DNA of 56,057 nucleotides, filler included, from Jimgerdemannia flammicorona (GCA_003990765.1; 2 parts of 2 records of this genome joined end to end with filler, not necessarily neighbours in it), one strand, 5' to 3'. Counted from the first letter of the whole stretch, positions 12,740 to 56,057 are shown. The notes: a model not told the origin generated them from the letters alone. Made by a program: numbers and translations.

Positions 12740-12903
12740 TACCTTCAATAGTTATTAAGGAGGATTATCTACAGATATATGGATCTTCCAGTTGGACCAA
12801 TACTTTGAGCTTATAAAAATGGAAAAAGATATACAAGTCCAATTTGCCACCACACTTCTTCAAGAGAATACAACTATTTGGTAGCACAATCATATTATAA
12901 TTA

Positions 12904-18300: not shown

Positions 18301-20478
18301 CAATATCACACTACAAGGGCCAAAACTGGTAATAGTGATAGTGGTGGTATATCCAAGTAGAGTTCTTGGTCCTCATGCCTAGGGATATCCATTCAGATAA
18401 GGGGTCCTTCAAAGAGGTCAGAGAGGCCTTGGAGCCATTGGTCTGGGTTGTCATCCAGGAGAGAGCTCCAGTGGTGTTCACAGTCAGTAGACTTGAGAGT
18501 AATCCAGGAGTTAACTTCTTGGGCTACCTTGATCTCTAGCTCATCAACCTCAGAGAAAGAGAGGTTCTGGAAATCCTTCAGTTAGATGTAGTTGAGGTTG
18601 GGGATTACAAAGAGTACATGGCACATAATTTGATAGACCTTCTTGGCAAGTCTTTGCTTGTATCTGTCCAGGTGGGTCCAGTCTGAGACCTGGTCAATAG
18701 GTAGGCTGTTTGTATGTTGAAGAAGCTGGTGGCTGATTTTATATTTATGCCAGATCTCTAGATGGCTGGTAGCAAGATTGGCCCTTTCGATGAGTTCATG
18801 GCAGTCAAGAACATAATGCCCTAGATTCTGGCTGGAGAGGTTAAGGGCCTCAGAGCAGTGATTTCTTCCTTGAATGGCAACCTGGATATGTCTGAAGAGG
18901 TGATCAACCTGGCTTGGGAGGAGCTGGCTATGGTGGGCAGTTTGGTAGCTGGTAGTGGGCATTCTTGTCTTGTCTTTTCTTTGTGAGGAGAGGGGAATAA
19001 GAGTTGTGGGGTATTCTTGCCTTGGGTATTTATACTTATTCACCTATCTGGTATGACCTTCTTTTGGTCATACTTTCTAGCCAAAATGTATGACCTATTG
19101 CTATAAGTGGGGCATATGCTAGTCATATGAGAAAATCCTGATTTCAAAGATATTGTCACTTGTAGTTGTAGTTATACAGGGTTAACAGGTCTTGGTCCTC
19201 TTTTTTTTTGTCTAGTTAGTGCTTTTGTAAGGACTGGCCATCCTTATCTAGGGCAAGGGCTCTCATTGTCACAGCTGGGAGTTTGAACTTCTCAGAAATA
19301 GAATTTCTTATAATTCAAGGCAATTCCTAGTAGCAATATCTGTTATATGGATGGGCTTAAATTGGTTTTGATATCATTGGCTTTCCTAAGTTCCATATGA
19401 AGTGTCTATCATCATTCAGTAGAAATGATACAGATGGTGTGAAATAGAGTTGTTCAAATGTGTTTTGCTGTATTATGTAAGATTGTTCTTCATCTGATTA
19501 TCTTCTTATTGGTTATCTATGATGTTTCCTTTTTTCTGCAATGTTCAGTATTATATGTTTTGGATAAAATATGTAGTATCTTGTTTGCTAAGTGCTCTGA
19601 TTCTTTAGAGCTGCAGTTCCTTCCTTTGCTGGGGAGTGAGTGTTTCCATATTATCCTAGAGGGCTTCATGTGTATTCTCTAGAGCTTCTTCTTTTTTCCA
19701 GGTAGCATCATGGGTGGGGTAACCATTCCACTTGATGAGAAAAACCTGCTTGACTGTTTTGGGGTATTTGTGGACCTTGTGGTCAAGTACTTCCTCAATT
19801 TTGAATTCCTTATGATTATTGATTCTAATTGGGAGTAGTGGTGAAACTATATACTTGGAGAATGGGTTCTATAGTAGTCCACCAATTGGCTGATATGGAA
19901 TACTGGGTGTACTCAGATATTGTAGAGAAGTTGCAACTTATAGTTGACTTTGCTGACTTTTTCCATAATCTTGTATGGTTCAATTCTTCTAGCACAGAGT
20001 TTCTTAGCAGGTTGTTGTGCTAGGGTGTCTGGATGGAGGTGATCTGTTCTAAGCATGACCCTGTTACCAATGTTATAGGAGACTTCTCTTCACTTCAAGT
20101 TTGCATACTTGGTCTAGTAGTCTTGTGCTTCTATAAGAGTATCTCTTGTCATTTGAGTAAGGTCAGAAATGGTCTTGGCTAGGTCTTGGGCTGCTGGGAC
20201 TACTAATTTCACAGTAGTACTCAGAGTCCTTGGGTGTTGACCATGATTCAGAAAGAATAGAGTCTTCTTTATAGAGGTTTGCTGGCTGTTATTATAAGCA
20301 AACTTGGTATGGACTAAGTACTTGTCCCAATTATTCTGCTTGTAATAGCAGAAGATGCTAAGCATCTGTTTGAGAGTCCTATTAGTTCACTCAGTTTGAC
20401 CATCAGTCTGGGGGTGGTAGGCAGTAGAGAACTTCAGCTTAGTTCCATGAAGAGAGAAGAATGTCTTCCAGAAGTTGC
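18300..20478 (-). mobile_element. 3' part of Ty3/Gypsy chromovirus lineage D (integrase end, chromodomain, 3' region with an extra ORF)
   Basis: [14 protein letters not shown] at ~20390-20432 and KFAYNNSQQ. Chromodomain EFKIEEVLDH...FLIKWNGYPTHDATW at ~19700-19810. Confidence 0.88.
18310..18962 (-). pseudogene. Accessory ORF of lineage D, homolog of the LTR-encoded protein family; function unknown
   Basis: TATAAATACCC at 19024-19034 (minus), ATG at 18962. The frame continues past the TAA at 18582 as LKDFQNLSFSEVDELE...DDNPDQWLQGL. It aligns with 54.9-55.5 kb. Confidence 0.75.
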
Positions 20479-24071: not shown

Positions 24072-24227
24072 ATTGATTAAATCGGTTGACATTGATTAAA
24101 TCGTTTAGCATTGATTAAATCGTTTATCATTGATTAAATCGTTTAGCATTGCTGGCATTGATTAAATTGGTTAGCATTGATTAAATCGGTTAGCATTGAT
24201 TAAATCGGCTGTCATTGATTACACCGA
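24072..24227. repeat. 19-bp minisatellite (ATTGATTAAATCGGTTAGC-like), ~8 copies
   Basis: Head-to-tail units visible directly, with one short interruption near 24148. Confidence 0.92.
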
Positions 24228-24419
24228 CCAAACCGGCTAGCATTACAGTATGGTTGGGTTCTACACCAAAATTAGCTCGAGGCGGTTTATTGTCGTCCCC
24301 ACGCTCGCGAAACAGGGAAGAGATGCTTGTTTTGGGTCGCGCGTTTATGCCTGTCGCTGGGAAAAGGAAAAAAAAAAAAACCCCCCTTTCTCAGACTTTT
24401 CCGCAAGATCCAAAAATGG

Positions 24420-25117
24420 ACGTGTTCAGCGCTTCGATTGATTGTGCCTCAGTAGTTCACCACCGCGAGTTCAGTTCAAGAGAACTCGATTTCCATCGCA
24501 ATAGTGTAAACTGCATTCCGTCAGTTAAAACCTCTATTGTTTACATCGAACCTTTTCGACGCAAGAAAATGGGGTGCTTCGGGTAATAGAGATGGAAGTT
24601 ATTGGCCCCCAGAAGACAGACTAGCGTGACATAAGACTTGTAACCACAAACCCCGAAGACCATTTTTCAGCGCTTCGATCGGTTGAAAGACTCCGGCCCT
24701 GTTTTTCTGCAATCACAATAGTGTAAACTGGATCCCGTTAGTCACAACCGCTATTGTTTACGTCTGACCTTCTCGACGCAAGAAAATGACGTGCCTTGGG
24801 TGGTGGAGATGGCAGTTGTTGGTCCCCCAGAAGACAAACTAGTGCAACATGAGAGGGACTAAAGGAATTGCATTCCGTTAGTTCCAACCTTCTCGACGCA
24901 AGAAAATGACGCGTTTTGGGTAATGGAAATGGCAGTTGTTGGTTCCCCGGAAGACAGACTAACGCGACATGAGAGGGACTAAAGGAATTGCATTCCGTTA
25001 GTCACAACCTCTATTGTTTACGTCCAACCTTCTCGACGCAAGAAAATGACGCGTTTTGGGTAATGGAAATGGCAGTTGTTGGTTCCCCGGAAGACAGACT
25101 AACGCGACATGAGAGGA
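24420..25117. repeat. Imperfect tandem repeat, 4 copies of a ~120-140 bp core
   Basis: TCGACGCAAGAAAATG...GAAGACAGACTA recurs at ~24555, 24773, 24893 and 25033. Confidence 0.9.
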
Positions 25118-26948: not shown

Positions 26949-27959
26949 ATGGCGAAACTCGTCTCTCTTTTGACCACCTTTGTTGCGCTCTCAAGCTGCA
27001 TTGCAACCATCTCTGCCCATATGGCGATCCGCGATCCGCCTACACGCCGCGCGCTTGACAGCTCCTACTACCAAGAGGCGCACTGCGTCTCAAACAATCT
27101 CGTCACTCCGCTGACCTTCCAAGGCAAATTCACGTACCCCTGCCGTGGCTTCGCTCCTGGACCCGCCCTGAAGACTTGGACCGCCGGCAGGCCGGTCTCC
27201 GTGGAGATGATCCCGAGCGCGAACCACGGTGGCGGTCACTGCGAGCTCGCCATTTCGTACGACAACGTCAACTTTGCTGTCATCTACCAGTCCTTTGACA
27301 CCTGCCACTCCCACTGCGTCCAGGGCGACCGCGCCGCCTGCACGCTCAACTTCACACTCCCGGTCACCCTCCCGCCCTCACCGAGCGCCGTCCTCGCCTG
27401 GAGCTGGATTGCGCACACGGGCAACCGCGAGTACTTCCACGGGTGCAGTGACATCCAGATCGTGGCCCCGGCGGCCTCCCGCAAGCGCTCGCGCAAGAGC
27501 AAGCCCAAGACCAAGGTAACGGGCGGGTTCACAGGACCCAGGTTGACGGTAGCTAACTACCCAGGCTACCCGGTCGTCTTCGAGTTCAACTCCACGTACA
27601 ATGGTGTCCAGGTGTACCACTCGCAACCCCAGATCACCATCACGGCCCCGCCAAACGCCAAAGCCATCACCCAAGCCGCCGATGCCATTAGCTGCCCGCT
27701 CCCCACCGTGCCCATCGGCGACCTCTCCAAGCTGAGCAAGACCCTTCCCGTGGCGGGCACGGCGTGCACCCCGTCGCAGCCTTCGCGGTGCGTGAACCCT
27801 GGCAGCGTATATCTGGACGGATTGCTTTTCATCGCGTGTGACGGGCAGACGTGGCAGCAGTCGTACCTGTCGGCTGGATTGCTGTGCGTCCAGACGGAGA
27901 AGGGGATCATGGGGTACTCGCAGAGCGCCGGTGACTTGACCGCTGACAACAATTGGTGA
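26949..27959 (+). CDS. Secreted lytic polysaccharide monooxygenase-like protein (AA11-like) with a C-terminal Cys-rich, CBM19-like module
   Basis: The signal peptide ends at TISA, followed by His1 (HMAIRDPPTR). Motifs ANHGGGHCELAISYD and VLAWSWIAHTGNREYFHGCSDI match the AA11 pattern HGGGSCQ / WTWFNxxGNREMYMNC. P/T linker, intronless, GC3-rich. Confidence 0.85.
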   Translation: MAKLVSLLTTFVALSSCIATISAHMAIRDPPTRRALDSSYYQEAHCVSNNLVTPLTFQGKFTYPCRGFAPGPALKTWTAGRPVSVEMIPSANHGGGHCELAISYDNVNFAVIYQSFDTCHSHCVQGDRAACTLNFTLPVTLPPSPSAVLAWSWIAHTGNREYFHGCSDIQIVAPAASRKRSRKSKPKTKVTGGFTGPRLTVANYPGYPVVFEFNSTYNGVQVYHSQPQITITAPPNAKAITQAADAISCPLPTVPIGDLSKLSKTLPVAGTACTPSQPSRCVNPGSVYLDGLLFIACDGQTWQQSYLSAGLLCVQTEKGIMGYSQSAGDLTADNNW

Positions 27960-27984: not shown

Positions 27985-28084
27985 NNNNNNNNNNNNNNNN
28001 NNNNNNNNNNNNNNNNNNNNNNNNNNNNTTAATTAATTAANNNNNNNNNNNNNNNNNNNNNNNNNNNNNNNNNNNNNNNNNNNN
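27985..28084. other. Artificial 100-bp spacer / contig join
   Basis: 44 N + TTAATTAATTAA (stop in all six frames) + 44 N. Confidence 0.97.
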
Positions 28085-36498: not shown

Positions 36499-38001
36499 TT
36501 TTTTTTTTTTTTTTTTTTTTTATAGTCCCTTGGACTCCGTCTTTATTACCAGTCTATGAATAAGTATACAATATCACCACCCACTATCCAATCCCCATCA
36601 GGGGGCCCCTCCCCACCTCTTCACGTATAAAGACTACCCTCTCACCAACAACTCCAACTCTCCCACCACTCTGACCACAGATTTTCACCACCAAGCGGTG
36701 CCTCCGACCCCTCTGTAGCCCCCAACCAAGCCACCAGCCTGTCAAGGTATCCTCCATAAGGAACTACCACTATGATAACCAGCTCCCCAAGCTCTGTCGC
36801 CTCTCCTCCTCAAATACAAATAGCCAGTGACCGGCCAGCCCAACCCAAATAGCCAATGTCCAGCCTAGAGTAATCTACTCTTCCCCTACCCCTCCTATCA
36901 ATCGATCCCTCAGGTCCTCCCACCTCCCCTGTACATCATCACCCCTACATCTTACCCCCAAGCAGTCCCCAATGGCCTGCCAAAAGTCTCCCAACACCTC
37001 ACACTCCCCTAGCCAATGTTCTGGCATCTGTACAAATCCCCCTTTCTGCCCTACATTATGGCACTCTTTGCAGTCAAAGTAGCCCCCTACAACAAGGTGT
37101 CCTGAGCAGAAGTTAAGCATCACATTCCTCCTCAGCACATACCACCAGACTACCCAGTACTTTAGCAGTATCCAATTTTTCACTGTGGCACTCCAGGTCC
37201 AAACCCCATACCAGTCCCACTCCTCACCAATTCCAACTCCTTGCCAACCACTAGGCCACAGATCCTGGCCTAGTCCCCTTTGGCATTTAATGCCATCACT
37301 AATATTGAACTCCAGTAAAGGCATGCCTCCCAGAAGAATGCTATCTCATCTCCACATCGCCGGGCCCCAAGCCCTCTCCCCCTCATCCCCTCACCAGCGA
37401 ATACCAATGCGGTGTGCCCCCTCGGCTATCCCCCACCAGAAGCCTTTATATCTCAGTTGCGTAGTATTCTGGAGCCCAACTAATGAAAGAAGATCACCAG
37501 TCAAGCCTCTTGGTGATGTCTGCCTCTCCCATATCTTCTGCAGCAGGGGAACCCAGCCCCCTCCATGCAACTCCACCACCCTCCTCAGCCACCAAGCCCT
37601 CAAGCAGTATAGTCTTTTGGGGAAGTCCACCAGCCCAAGACCACCTCTCACCACCAGTAGGGACAAAGTCTGCCAACCAATCTGACTCTGTCTGCTAGCC
37701 CAAATCCATCTCTTGGCCACCTTCATCAATCTCTTCACCACCCAGGCTGGGAAGTCCAGATGATAAGCCAAATACCACAGCTTTGGCAGCCAGTATACAT
37801 TCAAAATTGAGATCCTTCCTGCCAGAGAGAAGTGTCTACCCCCTCAACCCCATAGGTCCTCCTCCCAAAATCCAATCCTCTGCTCCCACTATAGCTTGGG
37901 CAAAACAGACCCATATACTGACAAATAGATACCCAAGTACTACACTGCCTCTCCAGTGGGGACAATTGTTCCAATAACTTCCCTGCCCACCAGGCCATTG
38001 C

Positions 38002-40068
38002 TGTAAGCGCACAACCTTCAAGCCACTGAAATTACATGTCACTCTCTGAACAAGCCACTGAAATCACACGTGACCTCTGAACAAATCTGGAAATCACCTG
38101 CTTGATCACAAAGCTGAGTCAAACCGAAGTCACAGCGCACAAAGCTGAGTCAATACAAAGTCACGGAACACAAGATTTACACAAATAGAATCTTACTAAT
38201 CAGGACCAAATGCGTATATACCAAGCACCAAGATGCATCGAATCAGAGAACCAAAACAAACAACAACCACAACTTCCAAATACACAAATATGACCACTGA
38301 GATCTACAACCGTATCCATACTGATATTTGGAATGCCATTGTCAACTGAGCCACACCCCCTCTGCCCCTTATGAATATCCATAGCCTGGCACCCCTCTAC
38401 TTTGTGGAAGCCCGATGGAATGCCCTGAATATGCTTAGCGAGGCCCACCGAATCGGACAAATCTCAAGCTACTACCAGATTGGCCGCCTCCTGGAAGACA
38501 TGGTCAAACACCACTATGATACAGACATTACCCAGATATCTCAACACCAGAAGCTCATCGCCCGCAAATATCGAGAACTCTTCTATGAGTACAATACCTT
38601 TATTCCCCGCCTCCGAGTCACTACCAGCGAAATGGTTGCTACCCTGTCCTATGGCCAAATCAATGATATGATACAAGAACTCAACCACAAGTACCTCGAA
38701 TATGTGCAGACCACAGACAGAACCTTCCCACACCCTGATGACCATATCCTCCAAATGCCTCAAGTCAGATACACTATGAAGGACGTCTATGATATAATCC
38801 ACTTCGACGAAGATGAAGCAGAAGACAATGATCCCTCTGATGCTGATATGACCTCTAGCCAAGGATCTCTGCCAACCCTGATCACACCACCAAACTTGCT
38901 AATAAACTTACAACAATTCATATGTAACTGCATATGAGACTTATTGAGACAATGACCACTGGCACAAATACCAACCCATGTTCACCCCCGACTATTTCAA
39001 CTATAATGAAGAGACCAGAGAACACAACCTGTACCTCCAGACAACCCTCGAGATTGAACCAACCACCCCACCACCTGAGTACGAGCAACATGAACCACAG
39101 CTACCAGCTTACTACAATCCTGCAACTCATAGTGCTGTAACCTATAGAAGGTATGCAGACAGTGAATCAGATGAAAGCAAAGACAATACACCCATCCTTT
39201 GCCCACCAACATCTTATCCAGTCTATGAGACAGATGATGCTATCCTGTGGGATGGAGATGAAGTTCCAATGTATTACTACCTTAGCAAACAAGGAGAAGT
39301 AGTCCGCAAACCACTCTTCTTAGATGACTACTTTATCAGAGATGATGTCATTGATGGTGATGTCATCGAAGACTACCCAGATAGCGCCTAAACCCATAAA
39401 TAGCCTAGCAGTCATAGTATAGTTAGATTAGCTTTGTATGATGTGACTGTGAACTAACTCAGCAGTCAGACAATCTCTTGACATGTCAGATCACACTTGT
39501 ACTATGTGACTGCATTCTGACTCAGCAAGACACTTAGTGCTACATCTATATTCAGCATAGTCCAGATAGCCCCTCAATAGTATAAATACCCCCTCCCCCA
39601 GACCTCAGAATCTCAGACTCGAACATACAAGAACATCCCTGAATACTTCCCCACAATATCTCTTCACACAACTACTCCTAGTATAGCAATATCATGAATA
39701 GCAAATAAATCTATTCCATAACCCACAAACCACTCTTAAGTAAATCTGCTCCCTGTTAGGTCCTACTCCTAACTCCATTACAAAATTTCCTAATTGGGTA
39801 TTGTCTGCAGCGATATGCCAATTCAACTAAGCTGGTCTTAGTTTCTTGAACTTTCTGAAATATGGAAAATCCTGAACATCCAGAACTAGTCCAAAGAAAG
39901 GACTTTGGTTGAGACGTCAACCCGAACTAGAAATCAATAAGCATAGAGGATGTACTCCATACGAAATTGATCTTGACCATAAGAAAACAGTCTTCCAGAA
40001 CATCCAGAATATCTAGAAAACCCTTCCAGAACTATATAACAGTTACTCTAAAAAGCAACCCTCTTACA
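38002..40068 (+). repeat. 5' LTR of A2 (2067 bp)
   Basis: Direct repeat of 46575-48637. It is 4 bp longer because of an insertion at ~38921-38925. TATAAATACCCC at 39581. Confidence 0.96.
38290..39391 (+). pseudogene. LTR(U3)-encoded accessory ORF, 5' LTR copy; unknown protein
   Basis: ATG 38290 (MTTEIYNRIHTDIWNAIVN), a CGA>TGA stop at 38347, and a 4-bp insertion frameshift near 38923. It ends ...EDYPDSA*. Confidence 0.8.
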
Positions 40069-40071
40069 ACT

Positions 40072-40083
40072 TGGTAGCAGCGG
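40072..40083 (+). promoter_or_regulatory. Primer binding site, probably initiator tRNA-Met
   Basis: TGGTAGCAGCGG lies 3 nt after the LTR. It is one mismatch from the complement of the common eukaryotic iMet 3' end (TGGTAGCAGAGG). Confidence 0.75.
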
Positions 40084-40189
40084 TTTACAATCCAATTCCG
40101 CTTCAAGATGCTTCCTCACTCCGCTACAAACCCCTCTGCAAATTCCTACAAGTTGGTATAAAGCCCAACCTCTGAACTGGAATTTATCT

Positions 40190-43100
40190 GAACCATCTGA
40201 CAATCTGGAGAGAATTGAACCTGATGTACAAGGACAATTTGACCTCCACACCTGTAACAAGTGGGATAAACTTCATTCAAAAAAAGAAGTACTCCGGTTA
40301 AACTAGCAAATAGGCGAAACTCTATTCACCGAACTCCTTGCACTACACCCAGCAAGTCAAGATGAAGAAGGTCTTATTGAAGCCTTCTTTACTCTTCTCA
40401 ACAAGAGTTTTGTCAGCTCCACAAATCCGAGCGACCTAGGACAACCAGCAGCAGTCTTTCTAGCCTTAGTTCCTCATGAAGCCCAAGCCTCTGTAGTCAA
40501 GTGGCTCAACTCTACTGACTTCCACCATACCAGGACCAAGACCACCTTATACTACCGATTCCAGAACAGCAAGACCCGCCATATCCTCAAAGAAGAAGCA
40601 AGAGAAACCCTTCATCAACTACCTGACCCTGAACCTGAAGCAGGCCCTACTACAGCCCTACCTGAATCTGAAACCAATACTGAACCTGAACTTAACTTTG
40701 AATTAAGTCCATCTGAAATCAGATATACAACTGATTCTGTCTACTTTGATGCCGAGCAAACCCAATTACACAGGGACCAAATCAAAGAGAAGGAGGAGTA
40801 TCTCACTGAATTCGATCCCAGATATACCACTGAAGGAGACGTACTTCCATCAGGACAGAATACACCTACACAGCAACAAACAGCTATCTATCAAGCCCTC
40901 ACTCCAGATCTACAACTACTACTTCAGCAACTTACACAGACCCAAAGAACTCCATCACACTCTACACCAGTACCTCAAGTAGTACCAGTAACACCACTAC
41001 CAGCAGTCCAACCACCTCCAGTAAACAACATGGTGAACCAACAGATCCTAGACCTCATAGCCCAAGTAGCTATAATGGTAGCAACCATTACTGCCTTAGC
41101 TGAACAGACCCGACCTACCAAAAATCTGAGCCTACCTATCTTCAATGGTACTGCACAAGAAGTCCAAAGCTTCATTAGTGTAGTTGACACCAACTTTGAA
41201 GCCAATCAATGGACCAATGAGCGAGTTGCTGACTGCATTCTGACAAACAATCAAGACCACACCCTAGAACAACTCTTTGCTACCACTACAGCCTATGTCT
41301 ACCAAGTTGTTACATTCTTCTGAGGACCTGCCGAAGAATGGTGGTGAACCCTTCCTGAAAAACCCCTCACATGGGATACCCGACCTGCAGTAGTTGCTCA
41401 GAATGCAGCAAACATGCCCCAGGATATAGAGCCCATCCTGCAGCCCCTGGACTCAAATAACTCATAATTGCTCAGTATTGCAGTGAAACCATGATTGCCA
41501 AATCTCGAGTAAAACTCCACAACCTCAAATTCGATGTACATGGCAAAGAAGAATTTGAAACCTTCTGTACAAAACTCAAGTCACTCCTGAACACTGTTGG
41601 CCTAGGATACATTGCCAATGATGAAGCACGAAATGGTACAAGAGCAGACCATTTATTTGATGCCCTGCCTGAATGGCTTACTAGAAAAATCTGAGAACAA
41701 GGCTGCCCAGTTGGTTGTGATCACCAACAATGGTGCCTAGCAAGAATCAAGACCATGGTCAAGCGATTCCTAACAGCTGGACCAATTCTGCCCCAAAGGC
41801 AATTCAACAACAAGGAAAAGAATTGGACCAAGAAAGAAGAACCCAAGCATGAAGCATCTCGAGCTCCCTCCACATCCACCTCTTGGACACCCAGAAATCA
41901 TGAACCCACCCAGCCAAGTATCTTCAAGAAACTTACTGAAGGCGAAAGAAATGAACTTCGAAGAAGCGGAGCATGCTTCTATTGCCGAAAGACAGGACAC
42001 ATGGCCAGTGCCTGCCCCAACTGAAAACCCTGAACAGCAACATGAGCAACTGTGACCACTCTGCACCACCTCAACAACCTGACCACCAGAACACTGGACT
42101 TTGTCAAGTTAAGACAAACTACTAAGGCCCCAACTAAAGGAAGTCAAAAAGCAGCTGGATATGACCTGTATGCAGCCGAAGAAGCTACAGTTTCTAACCA
42201 AGAAGTCAAACAAGTCTATACAGGAATCAGTATCCAAATCCCTGAAGGACATGTTGGAAGAATATGCTGTCACAGCAGCCTAGCACTGAAAGGACTCTCA
42301 GTAGAAGGAGGAGTCATTGACAAAGATTATACAGGCAAAATCATTGTCCTCATTCGAAACCACAGTTGGACACCCTTCAAGATCCCTATTGGCTTCTGCA
42401 TTGCCCAGATCCTATTTGAAAAAATCGAGTCAACCCTGATAGTCAAGGAAGTCCCTGAACTACTGCCCACCATCTGAGGATCTAAAGGATTTGGCTCATC
42501 AAACAAAGCCTCAGCCCAACCTACCATAAGCAAAGAAGAACAATTCTACAAGAAGATCGAAGATGGATATGTACTAAGTGGCCGATGCCCTCATAGTATT
42601 AGAATGTACTCTTCCCGAATGATTGATGATTGCTTCTTTTGTGTCAACGAACTGGCTCAAAGAAGAACCAACAGAAGAAAGGCTCATACAACTGAAATCA
42701 CCACCATTGGATCAGACAAACTGCTCACCCTTAAGGCTTTTGTCAATGGAGCACCTGTCAAGATTATGATAGACAGTAGTGCCTCAGGCAACTTCATCAA
42801 TGAGGAAACAGCCAACAGACTCAAGGTCTTCACCTCCCCAGTACAGCAAACTCAAGCAGTTGCTATAGCTGATGGAACCTCACATGTTATTAGCAAAGAA
42901 GTCCACAATCTACCCTTCCGAATTGGTGACTACCGAGTACATGTTACCCTCCAAATTGTACCACTCCCTGACAATGAAATCATCCTTGGGACTCAATGGT
43001 TAAAATGAGAGAACCCCATGATCAATTGGGTAAACCATTCTCTGACCATCAAGAAAGGACACCACAACTTCAAACTATAAGGTGAAAAGGACCCACTTAC

Positions 43101-46100
43101 CTCTAGTGACTTTGGACCAAAGATCACCCATGTCAACAAGCTATAACTCAAGAAATTGGCCAAGAAATGCCCTCTCTTCGCTATCTCCATCTGACCATCC
43201 AAAGGAGAATCTGAGAACTCTGAAGAAGATTTCTCCAAAGTTGACAGCCATGTCAGACCACTACTCCAGAAATTCCAAGACATATTCCCAAAGAAGCTTC
43301 CGAAAGGCCTACCTCCCAAACAAGCAGTAGACCATGCAATCAAGACTATCCCAGATGCCAAACCAGCCTTCAAGTCAATCTACCACATATCTCCAAGAGA
43401 AATTGATGCACTCAAGAAGGAAATCGACGAACTTCTGGAACAAGGATTCATCAGACCCAGTGTATCACCCTATGGTACACCAGTCCTCTTCATTGTCAAA
43501 AAAGAAGGAGACCTGCGAATGTATATTAACTACCGTGATCTCAATGAGTAAACCATCAAGAACTGTTGTCCACTACTGAGGATTGATGAAATATTCGATA
43601 GGCTCACTAACCCACAATTCATAAGCTCCTTTGACCTGCGAAATGGTTACTGGCAAATTGCCATGAAAGAAGAAAACATCTACAAGACAGCTTTCCGAAC
43701 ATGCTATGGATACTTTGAGTTTCTAGTTATGCCCTTTGGCTTAACTAATGCTCCAGCAACCTTCCAGACACTGATGAATATCATTCTGCATCCATATCTG
43801 GACAAATTCATTGTTGTCTACATTGACGACATCCTAGTCTTCAGCAAAACCCTGGAGGAACATCTTGAACACCTTGAACTAGTACTACTGAAACTCCGAG
43901 AAAACTGACTCTTTGCAAAACTCAGTAAGTGCAAATTTCTTCTGAAAGAAATTCAATTCCTTGGACACATTGTCACTCCAAATGGAATCAAAGTGGACCC
44001 CAGCAAAATCTCTGCAATCAAAGATTGGCCCACACCCAAGAAGCTGAAAGACCTCCAGTCATTCCTGGGATTAGCAAATTATTACAGGCGATTTGTTGCC
44101 AACTTTGCTAAAATTGCTACTGCCCTCACCCAAATGACCAAGTACAGCAAGAAACAAGAACAACCCTGGACCATGAAATAAGAGAAAGACTTCAACAATC
44201 TTGTAACATGGGGACCTGAACAAGATACTGCCTTTCAAGCACTGAAAGATGCCCTGATAACTACTCCAGTACTTCAAGCAGCAAATTCTGCCCTACCATA
44301 TGAAGTCACTACTGATGCCTCTGACCTAGCTCTTGGAGCAGTGCTCATACAAGAAGGACACCTTGTGGCCTATCACTCCTGCAAGTTCAATGATGCCAAA
44401 ATCAACTACGCAACTCATGAGAAGGAAATGCTAGCCATCGTAGACACTCTGATCAAATGGTGACCATACCTAGAAAGAGCACACTTCACAGTATTAACTG
44501 ACCACAAGTCATTAGTCAACATCAAGACACAGGCTACCCTTTCTCGAAAGCAAGCCAGATGGATGAAAGTCCTCACCAACTTTGACTATGAAATCCAGTA
44601 CCACCCTGGCAGGGAAAATATTGTTGCCGATGCCATCTCCAGACCACCAATCGAAGAGGTTATCCAAACTCTGACCTTGGTTACCAACACTATTATGGAA
44701 CAAATTATCACAGTATGTGTTGATGATAAAGAAGCCCAAGCACTCCGAGAAATCCTAAACAGTGATGATGCTGATAAGCATACCCAGTACAACCAATACC
44801 AACTCAAGGACAATACTATCTACTATAAGGACAGACTGTATGTTCTGAACAACCGAGATCTCAGAAGGGAATGTCATGATGCCCCTACAGCTGGACATTT
44901 AGGATTTGATAAATGCCATGAAGTTATCTCCCGAAACATCTATTGGCCCTGTATGGCAGATCAGCTCAAAACCTATATCACTTCCTGTGATGCCTGCCAA
45001 CGAAACAAGTCCTCAACACTAGCAAAACCCAGCTTACTCCACCCTATTCCAGTACCATCCACAAATAGGGAACAAATCTCTATGGACTTCATTGTACAAC
45101 TACCCCAAACCAAGAACGGAAAAGATGCAATTGTTGTCTTTGTGGACTACCTCAGCAAACAAGCCCACTTTGTGCCTATTATCACTACTGCAACAGCACC
45201 AGACATAGCCACACTCTTGTTTGACAACATCTTCCGCTATCATGGTCTTCTTAAGATCATTGTTAGTGACCGAGATCTGAAATTCACCAGCCACTTTTGG
45301 AAAGCCCTCCATGCACACCTTGGAATAAAACTTGCACTATCCACAGCCTTTCATCCAGAAACTGATGACCAAACTGAAAGAATGAACCGAACTCTGGAAC
45401 AAATGTTAAGGAACTATGTTTCCTACAGAAAAGATGACTGGTATGTACACCTCACCGCAGTTGAGTTTGCCTACAACAATAGCAAGCAAGCCTCTCTTGG
45501 AATGACCCCATTCTTTGCCAACACTGGACAAAATCCAAACACCCCGCTGACACTTATCCGAACCATTGAAGAACCCTCTACAGTCGAAGCTGTTGAAGAA
45601 TTCTTACTCCGAATGCGCAATTTAAGCCAGATTGCCATCGAGAATCTATCGCGAGCTCAAGAACAACAATCACAGTATATTAACCAACACCACCGAGAAG
45701 AAACTTTTGATATTGGAGAAAAAGTTCTACTGGACATCAGAGGATACCGAGTTGACAACCTCAAGCACAGACTATCTACGAAGCTGAACAGCAAGTTCAT
45801 TGGACCATTTGAAGTCATTGCACAAGTCTCTCCAACCTCCTACAAACTGGTGCTACTGGACACCATTAAGATTCACCCAGTCTTTAATGTTCAATGTCTC
45901 AAGTGATACAATGACAATGATGACGAGCTATTTCCAAATCGGACCACCAAACCACCTGCACCTGTCATTATTAATGACCAAGAAGAGTATGAAGTTGAAC
46001 AAATCCTCAACAAATGTGGCAACAAGAACCATCCTGAGTACCTTATCAAATGGAAAGATTACCCAATCCACAATACAACCTGGGAACCCAAGACCAATCT

Positions 46101-46150
46101 CCAGAATGCTACTGACCTAGTTCAGGAATATGATTCCTTGAACAACTAGA
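40190..46150 (+). pseudogene. Single gag-pol frame: Gag (CCHC) - dUTPase - CPH/CxxC motif - protease - RT - RNase H - integrase - chromodomain
   Basis: CFYCRKTGHMASAC ~41973; AGYDL, EGGVIDKDYTG and GFGSS at 42090-42500; IDSSASGNFI 42770; VYIDDIL 43816; IN HHCC and DDE at 44870-45400; YEVEQIL...YLIKWKDY ~45988. ORF pieces from 41491 to 45906 share one frame. There is a 1-bp loss near 41413. Confidence 0.93.
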
Positions 46151-46560
46151 ACCAAATACTCTGCACCTATCCATACATACTATATATTACCCTCCTGAAC
46201 ATTGTAACTATCAAGAACCAAGTCAAGAACTCAGCAAAACAAGACAAGAATACCAACCCTCTGGAAAAATAGCAAAACTGGAAGCAAGTCTATTCTCCCC
46301 ATACCACTGGTGGGAAACAAGGTGTAGACATTTAAGAAGATTCCTCAGAGGAAATTCTCCAGCAGTGAATGACGTCAGAATCACTTCTGGCACACAGTAT
46401 TGAACACATGACCCTTTAACATGTGAATCCAATGTGTTAGGCAACTGTACTACAAGCATGCCACTTCCTGAGAAAATGGACCTTACCAGACTTTTGATCT
46501 CCCAAACGGTATAACAATACTAGAACAAATTAGAAGGCCCTGACGAGAATGTCAAAAGCT

Positions 46561-46573
46561 AAGAAGGGGAGAG
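46561..46573 (+). promoter_or_regulatory. Polypurine tract
   Basis: AAGAAGGGGAGAG immediately before the 3' LTR; identical in A1 and A3. Confidence 0.92.
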
Positions 46574-46574
46574 T

Positions 46575-48637
46575 TGTAAGCACACAACCTCCAAGCCACT
46601 GAAATTACATATCACCCTCTGAACAAGCCACTGAAATCACACACGACCTCTGAACAAATCTGGAAATCACCTGCTTGATCATAAAGCTGAGTTAAACCGA
46701 AGTTACAGCGCACAAAGCTGAGTCAATACGAAGTCACAGAATACAAGATTTATACAAACGGAATCTTACCAATCAGGACCAAATGCATATATACCGAGCA
46801 CCAAGATGTATTGAATCAGAGAACCAAAACAAACAACAACCACAACTTCCAAATACACAAATATGACCACTGAGATCTACAACTGTATCCGTGCTGACAT
46901 TTGGAATGCTATTGTCAACCGAGCCACACCCCCTCTGCCCCTCATGAATATCCATAGCCTGGCACCCCTCTACTTTATGGAAGCCCGATGGAATGCCCTG
47001 AACATACTTAGCGAGGCCTACTGAATCAGACAAATCTCAAGCTACTACCAGATTGGCCGCCTCCTGGAAGACATAGTCGAACACCACCATGATACAGACA
47101 TTACCCAGATGTCTCAACACCAGAAGCTCATTGCCCGCAAATATCGAGAACTCTTCTATGAGTACAATACCTTTATTCCCCGCCTCCGAGTCACTACTAG
47201 CGAAATGGTTGCTACCCTGTCCTATGGCCAAATCGATGATATGATACAAAAACTCAACCACAAGTACCTCGAATACGTACAGACCACAGACAGAACCTTT
47301 CCGCACCCTGATGACCATATCCTCCAAATGCCTCTAGTCGGATACACCATGAAGGACATCTACGATATAATCCACTTCGATGAAGATGAAGCAGAAGATA
47401 ATGATCCCTCTGACACCGATATGACCTCTAACCAAGGATCTCTACCAACCCTGATCACACCGCCAAACTTGCCAATAAACTTGCAATAGTTCATAACTAC
47501 ATACGAGACTTATTGGGACAATGACCACTGGCATGAATACTAACCTGCATTCACCTCTGACTATTTCAACTATAATGAAGAGACCGGAGAACACAACCTG
47601 TACCTTCAGACAACCCTCGAGATTGAACCAACCACCCCACCACCTGAGTACGAGCGACATGAACCACAGCTGCCAGCTTACTACAATCCTGCAACTCATA
47701 GTGCTGTAATCTATAGAAGGTATGCAGACAGTGAATCGGACGAAAGCGAAGACAATACACCCATCCTTTGCCCACCAACACCTTATCCAGCCTATGAGAC
47801 AGACGATGCTATCCTGTGGGATGGAGACGAAGTTCCAATGTATTACTATCTCAGTGAACAAGGAGAAGTAATCCGCAAACTACTCTTCTTAGATGACTAC
47901 TTTATCAGAGATGATGTCATTGATGGTGATGTCATCGAAGACTACCCAGACAGCGCCTAAACCCATAAATAGCCTAGCAGTCATAGTATAGTTAGATTAG
48001 CTTTGTACAACGTGACTGTAAACTGACTCAGCAGTTAGACGATCTCTTGACATGTCAGATCACACTTATACTACATGACTGCATTCTGACTCAGCAAGGT
48101 ACTTAGTGCTATATCCATATTCAACATAGTCCAGATAGCCCCTCACTAGTATAAATACCCCCTCCCCCAGACCTCAGAATCTCAGACTCGAATATACAAG
48201 AACATCCCTGAATACTTCCTCACAATATCCCTTCACACAACTACTCCTAGTATAGCAATATCATGAATAGCAAATAAACCTATTCCATAACCCACAAACT
48301 ACTCTTAAGTAAATCCACTCTCTGTTAGGTCCTACTCCTAACCCCATTACGAAATTTCCTAATTGGGTATTGTCTGCAGTGATATGCCAATTCAACTAAG
48401 CTGGTCTTAGTTTCTTGAACTTCCTGAAATATGGAAAATCCTGAACATCCAGAACTAGTCCAAAGAAAGGACTTTGGTTGAGACATCAACCCAAACTAGA
48501 AATCAATAAGCGTAGAGGACGTACTCCATATGAAATTGATCTTGACCATAAGAAAACAGTCTTCCAGAACATCCAGAATATCTAGAAAATCCTTCCAGAA
48601 CTACATAATGGTTACCCTAAAAAGCAACCCTCTTACA
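46575..48637 (+). repeat. 3' LTR of A2 (2063 bp)
   Basis: TGTAAG...CTTACA, followed by the TSD ATTGC. Confidence 0.96.
46863..47960 (+). pseudogene. LTR(U3)-encoded accessory ORF, 3' LTR copy, 365 aa when repaired
   Basis: 1098 nt from ATG to TAA with no frameshift. Three stops (47022, 47487, 47541) are sense codons in the 5' LTR copy. Confidence 0.82.
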
Positions 48638-51600
48638 ATTGCCCAGCACCATTGTTTTGCACTTGTGCCAATTCAGCTTCACCCCAGAGTTCTCTTCATA
48701 CCACTCCACTGTCTTCTGGAGCTCCTTGATATCCGCAGTCACTCCCAAATCAACCACCATGTCATCCACAAAGGCTCCAACCTTCCAGCCAACTCCATAG
48801 ATAGAGAGCCCCACGATCTTCTGCCAAACCCTGTCCATTAGAGGTTCCAAGGAAAGAGCATACAAAATGGGGGACAGTGGGTCCCCCTGGGGCACTCCCA
48901 TACCCAGAGGGAATGCTACCCCTTGATGCCCATTACACACAAGTGCAGCCCTACTCCTTTCCAGTAGGCTGACCATCACTGACGAAATGGGACCGGAACT
49001 CCAATTCTATCTAATACTTTTGCCAGCCAGACTCACCGTACCCAGTTATAAGCCTTCTCCTGGTCCAAGAAGACAAGACACCCATCTAGTTCACAGACTC
49101 GAGCATCTTCAATAACTCCATGTACCCAGGCTGTGCCATCTCTAATAAGCTGACCCCCTATGAAGCCCCTCTGCTCAACACCCACAATTTGCTGGGCTAT
49201 CTTCTGTAGCCTTGCGACCACCACCTTAGTCACCAACTTTCTGTCTATGTCTAGCAATATTATCGGCCACCAGTTCTTCCAATCCTCTCACCTTCCCTTG
49301 TTCTTATAAAGCAGCATCACCAGCCCAAGATCTTGCTCCCCCACCCATCTCCCTGACTGCAATATAGAGTCATACAGTGCTATCAACTCCCCCAACATGT
49401 CTGGAACTCCAACCATTTGCTTCCAGAAGTCCCAGGGGAGGCCATCCTCCCCAGGCACCATACCCGAGGCTGTTGTGGTAAGAACCTGGTGGATCTCGTC
49501 CTCCTTTACAGGCATCATCAGGTCACCTAGTCCCTCAGCTTGTGGTGGGTACCAATCTTCTAATGTTTGGTCAATGGCTATAGCATCTGCCCCACCCTCC
49601 TCCTCACTCCACAATTCACTCCATCGTGCCTTCAGCATTCCAAAAATGTCCTGTACACTATGTACTAGTACATCATTCGAGTCAAGTACCCCTTCCCACC
49701 ACTGCTGTACCCTTCTCACTTGAATTATCCTTTTGAGAAACTTGGAAGGCCTCTCCCCTTTCTCCAGCCCCTGCCAATGAAGCCATGCCACCAGGCCTTG
49801 CACCCTTGACTCTTCCTCTTCTCATAGCACCTGTTGCAGTTCCCCAACCTCTATCTTCACTCTTGTTATTCTCCAATCCTCTTCTCCCTCCACTACTACC
49901 AGTCTTGCCCACTCCTCCAGGAGCCTAGCCAATCTAGTAGAAGCCCAATGCACTTTCTGCCTTTGCTGCTTCCCAGCCACTCTGCCAGCCTTGCTCCAAT
50001 ATATCCTGGCCATCTCTTTCATCCTTATCCACCAAACCCCAATCGTGGCCCCTTCCTGCTGCCAATTCCCTATCTTCAACTAAATGTCTTTCGCCCACTC
50101 CTCCCACTGGGACTCATCATCCAACAAGGAGGAATTTAGGCACCAATGTCCAGGCCCATCACCACTTCCCCCAAAACACCCCTGTCCCAAGAGGCTCTAG
50201 TAATCTGACCATAGACACCATTCTACCTCAAGCACCTTCCAAACATCGCAGCCCCAATAGTCGGCTGTCAGAATCCAGTCAATCCTTGTCCTCAGACCTC
50301 CAGCCCAATGCATATATACCCTCCCATCCCCCCAGTGCTCCCTACCAGCATCCACCAGTGCTCCTAGCCTTTCGATCTCCTCCCACATCATCAGCCCCCC
50401 ACTCCTGCTCTCAGCACCCCATCCTCCATCAGTTCTATTCAGCTGTACATCCCGAACCATATTGAAATCTCCTCCAAGCATATCCAATCCAGCTTCAGCA
50501 AGGATCCCACTCTCTAGGAGCCCTTTCACCCAATCCACATGCTCCCCCCGCACAGCAGGGCAGTAACAGGAGCCAACTGTGACTGGCTCCCAACCTGCAT
50601 GAATCCACTCACCCCAGACCAGTCTCTCCTCCCAGCTCCTCACATCCCTTATCTCCCCTCTGCCTTTCCGAACCAGAATCCTGACCTTGCTGTTCCAAAT
50701 CACCATGCCACTCCATTTCTTAGTCCATTCCATCCTATCAGCATCATCCTTGCACCTGATATCCTGCAAGAGGAAGAGATCGGCCTCCAATCCCTTCAAC
50801 CAAATAAAAATATTCCTGCATCTAAAAATATTGGTTGTACTGTTCATAATGAAATACAGTTTGTTCTCAATCAATCTCTACTGCTCCATGCCTATCTCCT
50901 CCTGTACCATGTCCAGATTATGTTCAGCCATCACCTTCTCCTCTTCAGCCCTCTGAGCCTCCAGTCCAGCCAACAGCTCATTCATCTCCTCATCAGCCTT
51001 CTCCTCAAACTCCTCTCGGTACTCGATGCAAGCCTCCTGCCAAAGCTGTAACCCATGATGCCTATTCCAATAGTACTCAGCCTTCTCCCCAGCAATAACC
51101 GCCAACTCTACCTCCCTCTCCTTGTCCACCTCATACCCTTCCTCCTCCAGATACACTGTGAGAATTTCCGCCTTCAGCACCATCGCCGCTCCTTCCCCCT
51201 GCAAAATTCTTGTTCAGTGCTCGTCACCCATCCCATACAAGTCCACCTCCCCCAGCTCTTCTGCTGCCAGGTTATTCATCATCCAGCACATCCAAAGTAG
51301 GTTCCCCACCAGTATAGGTCTGGCTTTCTGATAGATGGGCTTGATATCACCAGTGTCAACTTTGTAGTAGTACTTGGGTTCTTAATTGTGGATACATATC
51401 TCTGAAGTCTATAGCAAGTACTTCTTCATTCTGATGCAGGATCTTGAGAAGTTGTTCTTCCAGGGGAAAGTTTTCTTCAATAGTATATATGTGCTTGTTC
51501 TGGTCTCTATCTTTATTATACTCAAGTTCAGTAATCTTAGTAGTGGCATAGGCTCCTCTTCCAGTAGATCTAAAGCCTTATTCTTCTCTCTTAGTCTTGA

Positions 51601-54499
51601 TGAGTTCAATGACTTCAGTGATCTTGGGCTTCTTGATTTCGAATGGGGTGGTGGGGTTGTAATTTCTGACTATGAGTAAGATCTCACCAGTATAATCAGG
51701 GTCAATTACTCCTCCTTCAACTGAGATTTTGCTTTTGGTCAGACTGCTTCTGGTCTTGATAATTTCGGTATGGTTCTCTGGCAGCTTGACTCCAATTTCA
51801 GTGTCAAGTAGGGTGGTGGTCTGTGGTTCAAGAGTAGTATCTTGAATGCTGGCAAGGTCCATTCCTATGGCTCCTTTAGTCTTGTATTCTGGGATCTTGG
51901 TTTTGGGGTGAAACTTCTTGACCTTGAGGGTGATATCTGGTTCTTATTCCTCCTCATCATTACTGTCAGCTTGAAGCTCTGGGGGCTGATCATCTTCTTC
52001 AGCTTTCCTTTTTACTTCAGTGGCTTCTTGCTTGTATTTCTGTTAGTGGATTTTTCTGACTTTATTGATATAGGACTAGCAGTCATTCAAGTGTTCAGAG
52101 CAGTACATCCTAGTACCATGGAGGCATCTTTCTTGAGAGGTATAGCTATCAATGATCTTATTGTATCACTGCTCATCTGTAAGCTTAGGTGTCTTGTTCT
52201 TGTTCTTGTTCACTGAATATATGAAGACTTCTGTGTCCTCTTCATCTTCTTCCTCTATGTCTGATAGGACTCCTTTGTGGACATTGATAAAGACTTGTAC
52301 CTTTCTTTCTCTATAGTTGATCTGTATCTTCTGGGCATTGAGGTCAATGATGGCCTTGGCCTTGTGAAGCCATTGGTTACTAATAAGAATATCATAGTTG
52401 GTAGTACTTATAACAATCACATCTACTGAGATGGTAGCTCTTCCTATCTTGATGGGGACTTCTTGGATTTTGCCAAGGAAGGTAGCTCATATACCATCTG
52501 CTATAACATAGACTATCTTAGCAGACTCTTCAATATTCCAGCCTAGGTGGTCAATTGTCTTCTTACTTATAAGACATCCTCCAGTACTGGTATCAATGAT
52601 GACATCAAAGATATAATCTTCAATCTGACATGAGGTATAGGCTGATGTCTTGCACTGGTCTTCAGATTCTTTGCCTGAGTCTTCTGATTCTTTCTGTGCA
52701 TTGTGAGCTTCTACAATCTTATACTCTTGATTCTTGGTAGTAGTTGCAAGTCCTACTCTCAACTACTATCTAAAGGCAGGGACTTTGGCTAGCTGTCCAA
52801 AAGTAGTATTGACCTTCTGTTTCTTGAGATCCTTATAGATATCATACTGGTGGATCTTAGTCTTGTGCAGCTTCTGTTCTTTCTTGCTTTTGCTTTCTCC
52901 TGAGACTGGAGAGTGCCTTCAATGATTTGGTAAGTAGCTTCATCTAACTCTATGTCTTGATCAATCTCCTCAGGTTAAGTCTTGCTTTAAATAGTGATAG
53001 CTGGGGTCTTCTTTAGTCTTTCAACTGACTTGCTGTTGCTCTTCTTGTCATAGAGCTTGGACTGGGTTCTGATACCTTCAGTAGCAGGGTAGAATTTGAG
53101 CTCCTTATAGTATTCTTCATCATCAGTATCACCAATCTCCTCAATGACTACTGTATTGGTTTGTTCTCTAGTTCTATTAGTATTACTTGGTTGGGCTTTG
53201 CATCTTGTTTCAATAATACAATTATTTACATAGTGGCCTTCTTCTCTACATCTGAAGTATGTAATATTGTATTCTTCTGTAGTAGCTACAAACCTCTGCA
53301 CTGGTCTTCTGTTGGCACTTCAGACTTCTCTAATAACATTACTAAGGTATATAGTCATTTCAGCAAACTACTTGGCAAGTTCCTCTACTAGGTCAGCTTT
53401 GACTACCTTGGGGGTAGGTGAGGTTGGTTGTCTGTTTACAACTATAATAGGTATGATACTAGTTGGCTTTGATAGCTCTATCTTGATATCAGTTATTTTC
53501 TCTATTGAGTGTTTGGCAGGGTATCTGGCAGTCCAATATCTCTATACAAAGACTCTTTCTGATCAAGAGTCAGTGCAGCTGGGGTAGACCAGATTACTAG
53601 GGCAATTTCAGAGTGAACTTCTTTAAGGAAGATTAAATCCACTATTTGTTCTTTGAGAGCATCATAGTCAGCTAAGACAATCTGGTGGCAGATTCAGATA
53701 TAGAATGAGTTAGGATCTTCACTAAGTCCCTGGAAAATAGTATTAAGTTGATTCTGGAGAGCTTGCTTAATCTCTTTAGTATAATATATTGTTCTGAGGA
53801 AGGCCTTCATGTTGGCAAGTTTGGCTATATCATTATTAGTAATAGTGGCTACATTAAACTTATCTCTGACTGATCCTCTGAGGCTAACCAGTAGAAGGGC
53901 CAATTGTGCATCTACACCAAGAGCTCATATGGTGGCAAATTGTTCAAAGTCTTCAATAAAGGTCAGAATTAACTCTTCAGTAGTATATCTATAGAATGTA
54001 GAGAGACATATTTCTATCTTATCTTGAATTCTTACAGGGGTGACTCTTGTAGTCAGAGTAGTTGTTATGGAGGTTATTTATTTTTCAGCTTGAAAGTGAG
54101 GGATTCATCTTGAATTACCAGCCAATAGGCACTAAGTTATCATATAGTAGTTGCTGAGTCCTTCAAATATGCCAGATTCTCTTCAAAGTGTATCTCTTAA
54201 ACTAACTTAAGTTTGTTATAAGCAAGTTCTTATTAGAGTACTTTTTCAAGATCTTATAGTCCTCAAACTTCTTATCTTTAAACTGTCTTGTTATCTTTTA
54301 GATTGCTTGTAAGAAAGTGTATATATTATACTGAGTAGACTGACTTTATTTTAGAGAAAATAAGAGAGGTATTTATACAAAATATAATTCAATAGTTGCT
54401 AAGATATAAAGCTAAATATAAATTCCAATAACTAAAACAAAATACCAGAATAGGAAAAATTGCTAAGTTTCAGGGTCAGTACAAATGATTGTACAGGTT

Positions 54500-54697
54500 C
54501 AGAATACTGGTATAATTTTAGTAGTATATCAGAATACTGGTGCTGGAATAATTCAGTATTACATCAGAATACCAGTGCTGGAATAATTCAGTATCACATC
54601 AGAATGCTAGTGCTGGAATAATTCAGTATCACATCAGAATACTAGTACTGGAATAATTCAGTATCACATCAGAATACCAGTGCTGGAATAATTCAGT
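54500..54697. repeat. 35-bp tandem repeat (~5 copies) in the putative C LTR
   Basis: CAGAATACCAGTGCTGGAATAATTCAGTATCACAT units. Confidence 0.92.
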
Positions 54698-54711
54698 GTA
54701 ACCAAAAGACT

Positions 54712-55559
54712 TTAGAGTAAAATGTTCAAGACCATAGAGGCTTCATCCTCATCAAAGATCAGGATATCTTTGAAGGAGATGAGGTCTATGAATTCATCAT
54801 TATTATGTAGATCACATGTTTTATATACATATGTCATACATCTCATATATATTGCATATCTCATATATGTCATACAAGATGACATCATCACCAATGATGT
54901 CATCATGTTCAGCAGTAGTGGGAACAAGGAGGTCTGGGGCTCTCCAGTCTATGAGGTTCTCTTCTACAAAATAGAGGACAAATGTAGAGTCTTAGGAAGG
55001 TCCAACCTAGATATTTGGACCTTGAAATACTGAGATCAATCCTTGCAGAAATTGGTCTGGGTTGTTCTGGAGGATGGGATATCAGAAGTCTTCTACTTCA
55101 TCACTATTGAGGGTAATAGTGGACTGGGCTTCTATAGCCACTCTGACTTCTAGTATATTGATATGGTGGGCTGACAGGTCTCTGAAGTCTGAGACTCTAA
55201 TATACTCTAAGTTAGAGATCAACCATAGTGTATGTCTGAAGATTTGATAGATCTTCTTAGCTGTCCTTATTTTGTATATATCCATAGGAGTGGTATCTTG
55301 TAGCTGGCCTGTGGGAACTCTCAGCAGAGGAGGTTTCCTATCTCATACTCCTGCCACATTTAGAGGTATTTGGTAGCAATAGTGATCCTTATTTCCATTT
55401 CACAGCAGTAGCAAATATAATGATAAAGATTACCAGTATCCAGGTTAATACTAGGAGTCCTTCTTGAGGTCCTCATGGCTCTTCTGATGTCTTAGAACAT
55501 TCTTCAACTGAAGTGCCTTGATAGTTTCTTGACCTTGAGGTTTGGCAAGTAGCAGACAT
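54712..55559 (-). pseudogene. Accessory ORF in the lineage C LTR, homolog of the A and D ORFs
   Basis: TATAAAA at ~55637-55643 (minus), ATG at 55559. Fragments INLDTGNLYHYI...MWQEYEIGNLL, DIYKIRTAKKIYQIF...NNPDQFLQGL and DILIFDEDEA; frameshifted. Confidence 0.72.
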
Positions 55560-56057
55560 TTTATTTGTAAGTCTTTGAGCTATTTTGGAATTAGTGGGTC
55601 TTATTGGTTACTGCTACTGCAGTTCCTTGATCCTTCTTTTATATTCCTCAAGATATCCATACTGTGGTCACAATGACTCACAGTTGGTCATCATTGCTCA
55701 TCTTGTATACCATATGATCTTCTTGTACTCCAATCTGGTGGCTTATAAGAAAAGACTGTCTTCTGTACTGATATCATCATTCTGGGGTCACTGTTACAAT
55801 ATCTAACCAAACAAACCTCTACATCATTATCCTGAAGTACCTCATTATTTGAAAGTATCTTATTATATAAGAACTTTAATTATCTCTTACTAAAACTCCT
55901 TAATATTCTTTTTTATTTCCAAGATCCTTCTAGATCTTTCTTTCAAATCTTATATAAATATTCTCTCTGTCTGTTTGAATAAAGCTCAAAATATTTCTCT
56001 TTAAAATTCTTCAAAAACTACTTAAACTTATAGTATCTCTTTAAACAACTTAAATTA

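Follow-up and report, generated by a model that had tools for sequence, protein, structure and literature searches.

A selected accessory gene inside the U3 region of a Ty3/gypsy long terminal repeat of Jimgerdemannia flammicorona, with a probable second promoter

Introduction

The long terminal repeats (LTRs) of retrotransposons are usually annotated as non-coding, and the start of their U3 region is set by the polypurine tract (PPT). The 56,057-nucleotide stretch of Jimgerdemannia flammicorona DNA (GCA_003990765.1) analysed here, hereafter the window, carries the 5' LTR of a high-copy Ty3/gypsy element, named lineage C, in which dUTPase is present and a chromodomain is absent. The U3 of this LTR holds an accessory gene, which we call the cargo gene and which has homologues in three further element lineages, A, B and D.

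Several described systems share part of this arrangement; statements about them refer to excerpts of the cited papers. Genes of the aORF-3S class are sense, extra conserved genes that lie between pol and the 3' LTR in most copies. The aORFs are placed in the internal region, and the sense ones are env-like with membrane segments (PMC7264820, which also treats the role of the PPT). Lineage B has its cargo gene in exactly the aORF-3S position, which is seen in B only and not in C. The cargo protein differs from the aORF-3S products in being soluble, with no transmembrane segment found, and its gene lies wholly inside U3 in three of the four lineages. The maize Grande element carries gene23, which is antisense and nuclear and has its own promoter (PMC7264820); a promoter of its own is what the cargo gene would share with it, whereas the cargo gene is sense.

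Several U3 promoters have been reported for mouse mammary tumour virus (MMTV) (PMC12789967; PMC2118998). The MMTV sag gene resembles the cargo gene as an open reading frame (ORF) in the LTR with extra promoters upstream within U3, the counterparts here being TATA-like words only. It differs in encoding a retroviral membrane superantigen from RNAs that are largely spliced or made from the env promoter, and sequence kinship is not indicated. The foamy-virus Tas/Bet system, with its internal promoter, is the closest in working, although transactivation has been demonstrated there and would be the presumed role here. The foamy-virus internal promoter is located within env rather than in the LTR, and no homology to the cargo protein was found (PMC3185757). 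The lineage-C system appears to be a member of neither the foamy-virus Tas type nor the MMTV sag type.

Fungal Ty3/gypsy elements such as PosPlaTy3 carry dUTPase at varying pol positions, and an extra 'add. ORF' has been noted (PMC2864245). These positions include one between protease (PR) and reverse transcriptase (RT), as in lineage C, but the excerpt describes no LTR-internal ORF, and the comparison with the cargo gene is one of descriptions only (PMC2864245). CERV, from the C. elegans element Cer1, is likewise a novel accessory protein encoded by an LTR retrotransposon, and its role is regulatory; it is made by splicing, however, acts as an RNA exporter and is not described, in the part cited, as LTR-encoded (PMC10309623). 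No LTR-internal ORF appears in the excerpts of PMC3248453, PMC3485330 and PMC10787394, and our searches of the open-access literature, with subscription papers and Repbase outside the scope, turned up no account of such a gene inside a retrotransposon LTR.

Results

The window contains a real LTR with a real accessory gene, and a second promoter within that LTR is probable. A preliminary description of this DNA had placed the lineage-C LTR on the minus strand, from TGTAAC to a CTTACA ending at 54308, with gag directly after it. We searched the organism's own genome (231 Mb in 35,354 contigs), which gave 60 matches, drawn from 40 scored candidates, and examined 30 loci. The TGTAAC start is present at 55798. 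The end had been drawn 170 bp too short, since shared sequence runs past 54308 in 30 of 30 loci, to the equivalent of 54138, and TTACA stands at the earlier end in only three of them. CTTACA is present (54313), but the LTR continues to 54138 and is followed there by a site resembling a primer-binding site (PBS). Its terminus reads ..ATATGATA in the window copy and ..TGACA in most copies.

Terminal repetition and target-site duplication (TSD) of the segment were borne out; TG...CA ends flanked by a TSD are seen with the end at 54138 and not with the end at 54308. Bounded in this way, the LTR has TG...CA ends, direct repeats, a PBS-like site and a PPT. Among the 30 loci, nine LTRs are followed by the PBS-like site, six are solo and one is truncated; a purine tract stands in front of 13 LTRs of 3' type, or 14 with L018, as judged by eye. 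Genome-wide, there are 294 exact LTR-end/PBS junctions and 321 exact PPT junctions, with none in the reversed control for either. LTR pairs were found in 6 of the 14 two-LTR candidates (90.5-93.8% identical, in elements of 8.67-8.84 kb), and one more candidate has both outer ends; in lineage C, the differences within pairs are almost all transitions. TSDs of 4 bp flank solo as well as full copies; of the 12 insertions that could be evaluated, 6 have an exact one (CTAT, ATGG, ATAG and three times ATAT), as compared to a permutation mean of 2.2 (p 0.004). This count leaves out L018, a 3' LTR with a decayed PPT, L029 and L074, in which an end is missing, and L075, L076 and L078-L082, in which one end was not located in the stretch; L085 and L086 were unused. 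Many C LTR copies start with TA rather than TG, indicating that C-to-T decay strikes CpA as well as CpG.

The ORF that had been described from 55559 does have its ATG there and a stop at 54714-54712, but it is broken in the window copy. Compared by tblastn with an open copy, it falls into four pieces (55559-54715) with changing frames and internal stops, the frame changing near 55502, 55304 and 54829. Naturally open C copies encode 277 and 287 amino acids from the same ATG. Frames of about 290-300 amino acids are found in many of the best 150 matches, a set biased by having been chosen by score, and open copies were found in all four lineages. Across the 39 aligned C LTRs, the coding frame averages 3.9 stops per copy and the two other frames 10.1 and 11.6. 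The length of the variable tail is a multiple of 3 in 33 of 39 C copies; for the non-coding part the figure is 20 of 39. Nucleotide identity between C and B is approximately 0.49/0.62/0.36 by codon position, a pattern that shows protein-level selection, and about half of the identical residues are encoded by different codons. These results show that the U3 of lineage C contains a selected protein gene.

Both TATA words of the preliminary description, TATAAAA at 55643 and TATAAATACC at 54377, were confirmed on the minus strand; we refer to them as TATA1 and TATA2 (Table 1). A TATA-like word stands 62-84 nt before the homologous ATG in all lineages (62-75 nt in A, B and D), against a background of 1.8-3.5% of 40-nt windows that contain such a word. 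In anchored copies, the word is TATATA in A (12/12, one counted twice), TATAAAT in B (27/27), TATAAAA in C (38/40) and TATTTAA in D (11/11). In L118, a metagenome relative with the B layout, TATAAAA lies 80 nt upstream, the leader is C-like and the stop abuts the PPT. The LTRs of all four lineages contain TATAAATA, with AATAAA downstream of it at 27 nt in C, 27 nt in B, 26 nt in D and 123 nt in A. A D-lineage LTR (L091, ~2680-3550) has about five 175-bp tandem repeats downstream of TATA2 and AATAAA.

Two further motifs of the LTR need redefinition. The paired motifs TGACATCA (54902) and TGATGTCA (54887) are present, and both are single-transition derivatives of a palindrome, TGACGTCA, which we take to be a CRE-type site. 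Intact palindromes were found in 2/39 and 3/39 C copies at the two sites, and one-transition forms in 24/39 and 23/39. B LTRs have one such site outside the ORFs, 257 nt before TATA2 (intact in 2/4); A has one or two, and D none there. The 35-bp repeats at 54697-54528 also exist, numbering 0-6 units among the 39 C LTRs and 1-2 in 22 of those, but they are not common to the other lineages, with no match in A, B or D.

It had further been proposed that a two-promoter LTR with a cargo gene is common to elements of differing gag-pol layout. The gene with its upstream TATA-like word is indeed common to them, but not the whole LTR: in lineage B, the TATA word and the gene lie outside the LTR, so that the shared unit is the putative promoter plus the gene. 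The A element (10.6 kb, 5-bp TSD) carries the gene in its 2.07-kb LTR, and the D element (12.6 kb) inside a 2.35-kb LTR. In the B element (9.2 kb, LTR of 0.8 kb, 5-bp TSD; layout taken from L064 and L113-L116), the gene follows pol and its stop codon abuts the PPT. The gene is thus in the U3 of A, C and D, on both sides of the pol split, and directly before the PPT in B, and the order in the genomic RNA is the same in all four lineages, pol - untranslated region (UTR) - TATA1 - gene - TATA2 - R. A vestigial LTR start upstream of the cargo gene in B was considered and found suggestive, not convincing.

Lineage D was reached via a metagenome match and is abundant in the genome. Identities in the cargo core are 40% for C-B, 28% for C-D, 29% for B-D and 15-20% for A. 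With a profile built from B, C and D only, the A LTR genes come next in rank within the window, and the A gene scores 15.7 bits on a hidden Markov model built without A, the best of 2,000 shuffles scoring 7.6. The A-C kinship lies in the N-terminal helical core. It had been read from an echo between DILIFDEDEA in C and DIIHFDEDEA in A, which did not survive: DILIFDEDEA is a private mutation, present in 1 of 37 readable copies (39 examined), most C copies having DILTSDEDEA or ISFSDDDDEA as their C-terminal peptide, and the A peptide occupies residues 168-177 of 365, mid-protein rather than C-terminal.

The bodies of the elements fall into two groups. All four lineages encode a dUTPase, which precedes the protease in A and B and follows it in C and D. 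Lineage A has gag-dUTPase-PR and a chromodomain-like tail, C and D have gag-PR-dUTPase and no such tail, and the B tail is chromodomain-like by eye. An integrase (IN) tree separates A+B from C+D with support 100/100 (the rows of the RT tree are A and B only); cargo distances unite B and C. A whole C copy, L046, reads gag-CCHC-PR-dUTPase-RT-RNase H-IN, with pol ending after IN (motifs by eye), and the chromodomain after integrase that defines chromoviruses is absent from it. The Ty3/gypsy order gag-PR-RT-RNase H-IN is seen in the L046 motifs, in tblastn matches to A and B pol and in integrase Pfam matches in A. Lineages B (chromoviral) and D (non-chromoviral) share a 3' UTR of 256 bp that is 81% identical, begins at the D integrase stop and is absent from A and C. 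It is either direct evidence of exchange, through recent recombination, or a conserved cis element; Rfam gave no match for it, and L064, L046 and L111 gave one chance match. Lineages A and B have a related long N-terminal extension or ORF ahead of the capsid part of gag, with a common HHT.TKT.LYYR word.

The N-terminus of the cargo protein is basic and its C-terminal half acidic. The protein has no membrane segment, the best 19-residue hydropathy mean being 0.5-1.1 in the four lineages. A DLI(S/D/I/N)F word and a terminal VLN word are retained in B, C and metagenome relatives. The core was modelled as compact and all-helical (pLDDT 79, pTM 0.74), the full-length protein with pLDDT 57 and a best fold-search Z of 4.1. 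Foldseek gave no match to the core with E < 0.8 in PDB or BFVD; the best VIA Z was 4.4 (root-mean-square deviation 3.5, 83 aligned), so that the fold is shown neither to be new nor to be unrelated to DNA-binding folds. No Pfam family was found (best E 0.009, one of 23 members), PHROGs gave nothing under 0.04, PDB sequences gave no match and viral contigs gave no homologue. Homologue searches returned only close metagenome proteins (5, 1 and 8 per search), and a profile of B and C only gave six metagenome matches among 1.84 billion representatives. The Atlas gave no usable match, and otherwise unnamed clusters at 0.90-0.94 that serve as leads only.

Table 1. Features of the lineage-C LTR and of related elements (window positions unless a locus is named)
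Feature	Position	Strand	Remark
Lineage-C 5' LTR	54138..55798	-	1,661 bp; from homology limits in 30 loci, PBS-like site, TSDs and LTR pairs
Left half of target site, ATAT, 4 bp	55799..55802	-	partner absent from window
TATA1, TATAAAA, putative cargo promoter	55637..55643	-	84 nt upstream of cargo ATG
Accessory (cargo) gene, ~280 codons	54712..55559	-	tblastn in four pieces
Two decayed TGACGTCA palindromes	54880..54902	-	within the acidic tail of the ORF
35-bp tandem repeat, 4.9 units	54528..54697	-	lineage-specific, variable number
TATA2, TATAAATACC, putative genomic-RNA promoter at U3/R border	54368..54377	-	kept in nearly all 39 copies
AATAAA poly(A) signal	54345..54350	-	27 nt past TATA2; in 37/39 copies
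PBS-like site beyond LTR end	54118..54137	-	ACTT(A/G)GTGCC
C internal region: gag with CCHC knuckle, protease, dUTPase, RT start	51312..54137	-	motifs by eye
Lineage-A cargo gene	38290..39391	+	inside A LTR 38002-40068; second copy in 46575-48637
Lineage-B cargo homologue, truncated	18396..18962	-	36% identity, E 5e-34
B/D-shared 3' UTR	19168-19469	-	
B/D-shared 3' UTR	9890-10189	+	
B/D-shared 3' UTR	L114 ~7347-7598		
A/B pre-capsid extension	L113 429-1172		
A/B pre-capsid extension	40307-41320		

The window as a whole is a nest of decayed retroelements surrounding a CpG-retaining island at ~20.5-28 kb, the retroelement copies being heavily CpG-depleted. It consists of two contigs joined by N runs at 27985-28084. 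A long interspersed nuclear element (LINE) with an APE domain interrupts the C element at 51312, and the window holds no 3' LTR of that element. The nesting extends over 36515-51311, where a whole A element (38002-48637, TSD ATTGC) has in turn split the LINE that interrupts the C element. The island contains a protein kinase gene of the host (22101-23039, plus strand), a gene for a secreted AA11-like lytic polysaccharide monooxygenase (26949-27959, plus strand; AA11 match with E 1e-8), a 19-bp tandem array (24053-24245) and longer repeats (24509-25128). The kinase and the AA11-like protein point to a fungal host. Inverted arms of ~235 bp, 91% complementary and 1.1 kb apart, at 11144-12744 are possibly a non-autonomous DNA transposon.

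Discussion

The reading that we favour combines a selected gene in U3, an mRNA of its own from TATA1 and a role for its product as a trans-activator, and we put the probability of the whole at about one half. Its transcriptional part is likely: TATA1 would give a short cargo mRNA terminating at the AATAAA just past TATA2, so that each LTR, solo LTRs included, would be a full cargo expression unit, and TATA2 would give the genomic RNA. Such a message of its own would be required by the position of the gene at the 3' end of the genomic RNA, and a genomic RNA starting from TATA2, at about the AATAAA, would avoid premature termination. What differs among the four lineages is the position of the PPT alone, and this determines if the gene becomes part of both LTRs. 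With the PPT upstream of TATA1, the putative promoter and the gene stand in both LTRs; with the PPT behind the stop codon, both stay internal. Our best guess, held at somewhat less than even confidence, is that the protein acts in the nucleus and in trans to activate the promoters of its own element. An activator of this kind may provide an early/late switch, Tas-like in working and sag-like in layout.

Several observations weigh against this reading. The full element C900 has no matching TSD. Shared transversions within C are distributed 5/3/11 by codon position, a mild third-position bias and a weak signal, as the non-coding part gives a similar 4/8/11; in addition, one stop position is common to more than half of the C copies. 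The promoter roles of TATA1 and TATA2 are read from sequence. The set of TATA words was picked after inspection, with TATATA admitted for A and TATTTAA for D. Words of A and T only escape the C-to-T decay of these copies, so their retention among members of one lineage counts for little; the evidential weight therefore lies in the position across lineages. In lineages A and D, the open frame extends past the TATA-like word in the upstream direction. The profile similarity between A and C is weak (hhalign probability 27, E 7e-4), and the cargo tree rejects no grouping, including the A+B of pol (p-AU 0.31), which leaves gene exchange among the lineages unproven. Finally, the cargo core, for which DNA binding is proposed, is not strongly basic.

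The same architecture might instead serve a protein that acts post-transcriptionally or against silencing, by exporting or protecting genomic RNA as CERV- or Rev-like proteins do, or by countering methylation or small-RNA defence. The heavy CpG depletion of the copies, which implies strong silencing pressure, fits this alternative, the B/D-shared 3' UTR could serve as its response element, and CERV sets a precedent in a Ty3/gypsy element, as far as the excerpt goes (PMC10309623). We nevertheless regard it as rather unlikely, since A and C have no UTR of the B/D type, and the acidic tail with its hydrophobic word, present in all lineages, would better suit an activation domain. It is less probable still that the gene is real and TATA1 is no promoter, the protein coming solely from the 3' LTR, by way of a genomic transcript that is spliced or reads through. 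The open frame upstream of the TATA-like word in A and D would agree with such a route, as would MMTV sag, which is largely expressed from spliced RNAs according to the excerpt (PMC12789967); in favour of the promoter, all four lineages have a TATA-like word at the same distance although their leaders are otherwise dissimilar, and L118 has it too.

Two further explanations are very improbable. A neutral passenger, whether a captured host gene, a nested insertion or an accidental frame, would account for the many broken copies, the three frame changes of the window copy and the lack of a known family. It is largely refuted by the codon-position pattern and the in-frame length changes, by the presence of the gene in four lineages at 15-40% identity and by the failure to see a target duplication or second termini around it. 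A role as an env-like protein, serving passage from cell to cell or from nucleus to nucleus, would suit the env position of the lineage-B gene, between pol and the 3' LTR, but has the least in its favour in a protein that is short and acidic and has no hydrophobic segment in any of the four lineages.

Beyond the trans-activator reading, these elements may be 'complex' fungal retrotransposons, in which a previously undescribed family of trans-regulators forms, together with its own promoter, a cassette that passes from lineage to lineage, chromoviral or not. An upstream PPT would then make solo and paired LTRs self-contained regulator units, with a Tas-like early/late switch of an origin independent of retroviruses. 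We offer this wider proposal as speculation that is unlikely to hold in full.

That a selected gene, equipped with a TATA box of its own, lies wholly inside the U3 of three high-copy lineages means that solo LTRs may express a protein. It also means that LTR-divergence dating, and the assumption of a neutral rate, fail for these elements. The comparison of B with A, C and D shows how a shift of the PPT can carry a gene into an LTR, a route that might be proposed for MMTV sag or for nef-like overlaps, and the cargo family offers an accessible test case for the function of retrotransposon accessory proteins.

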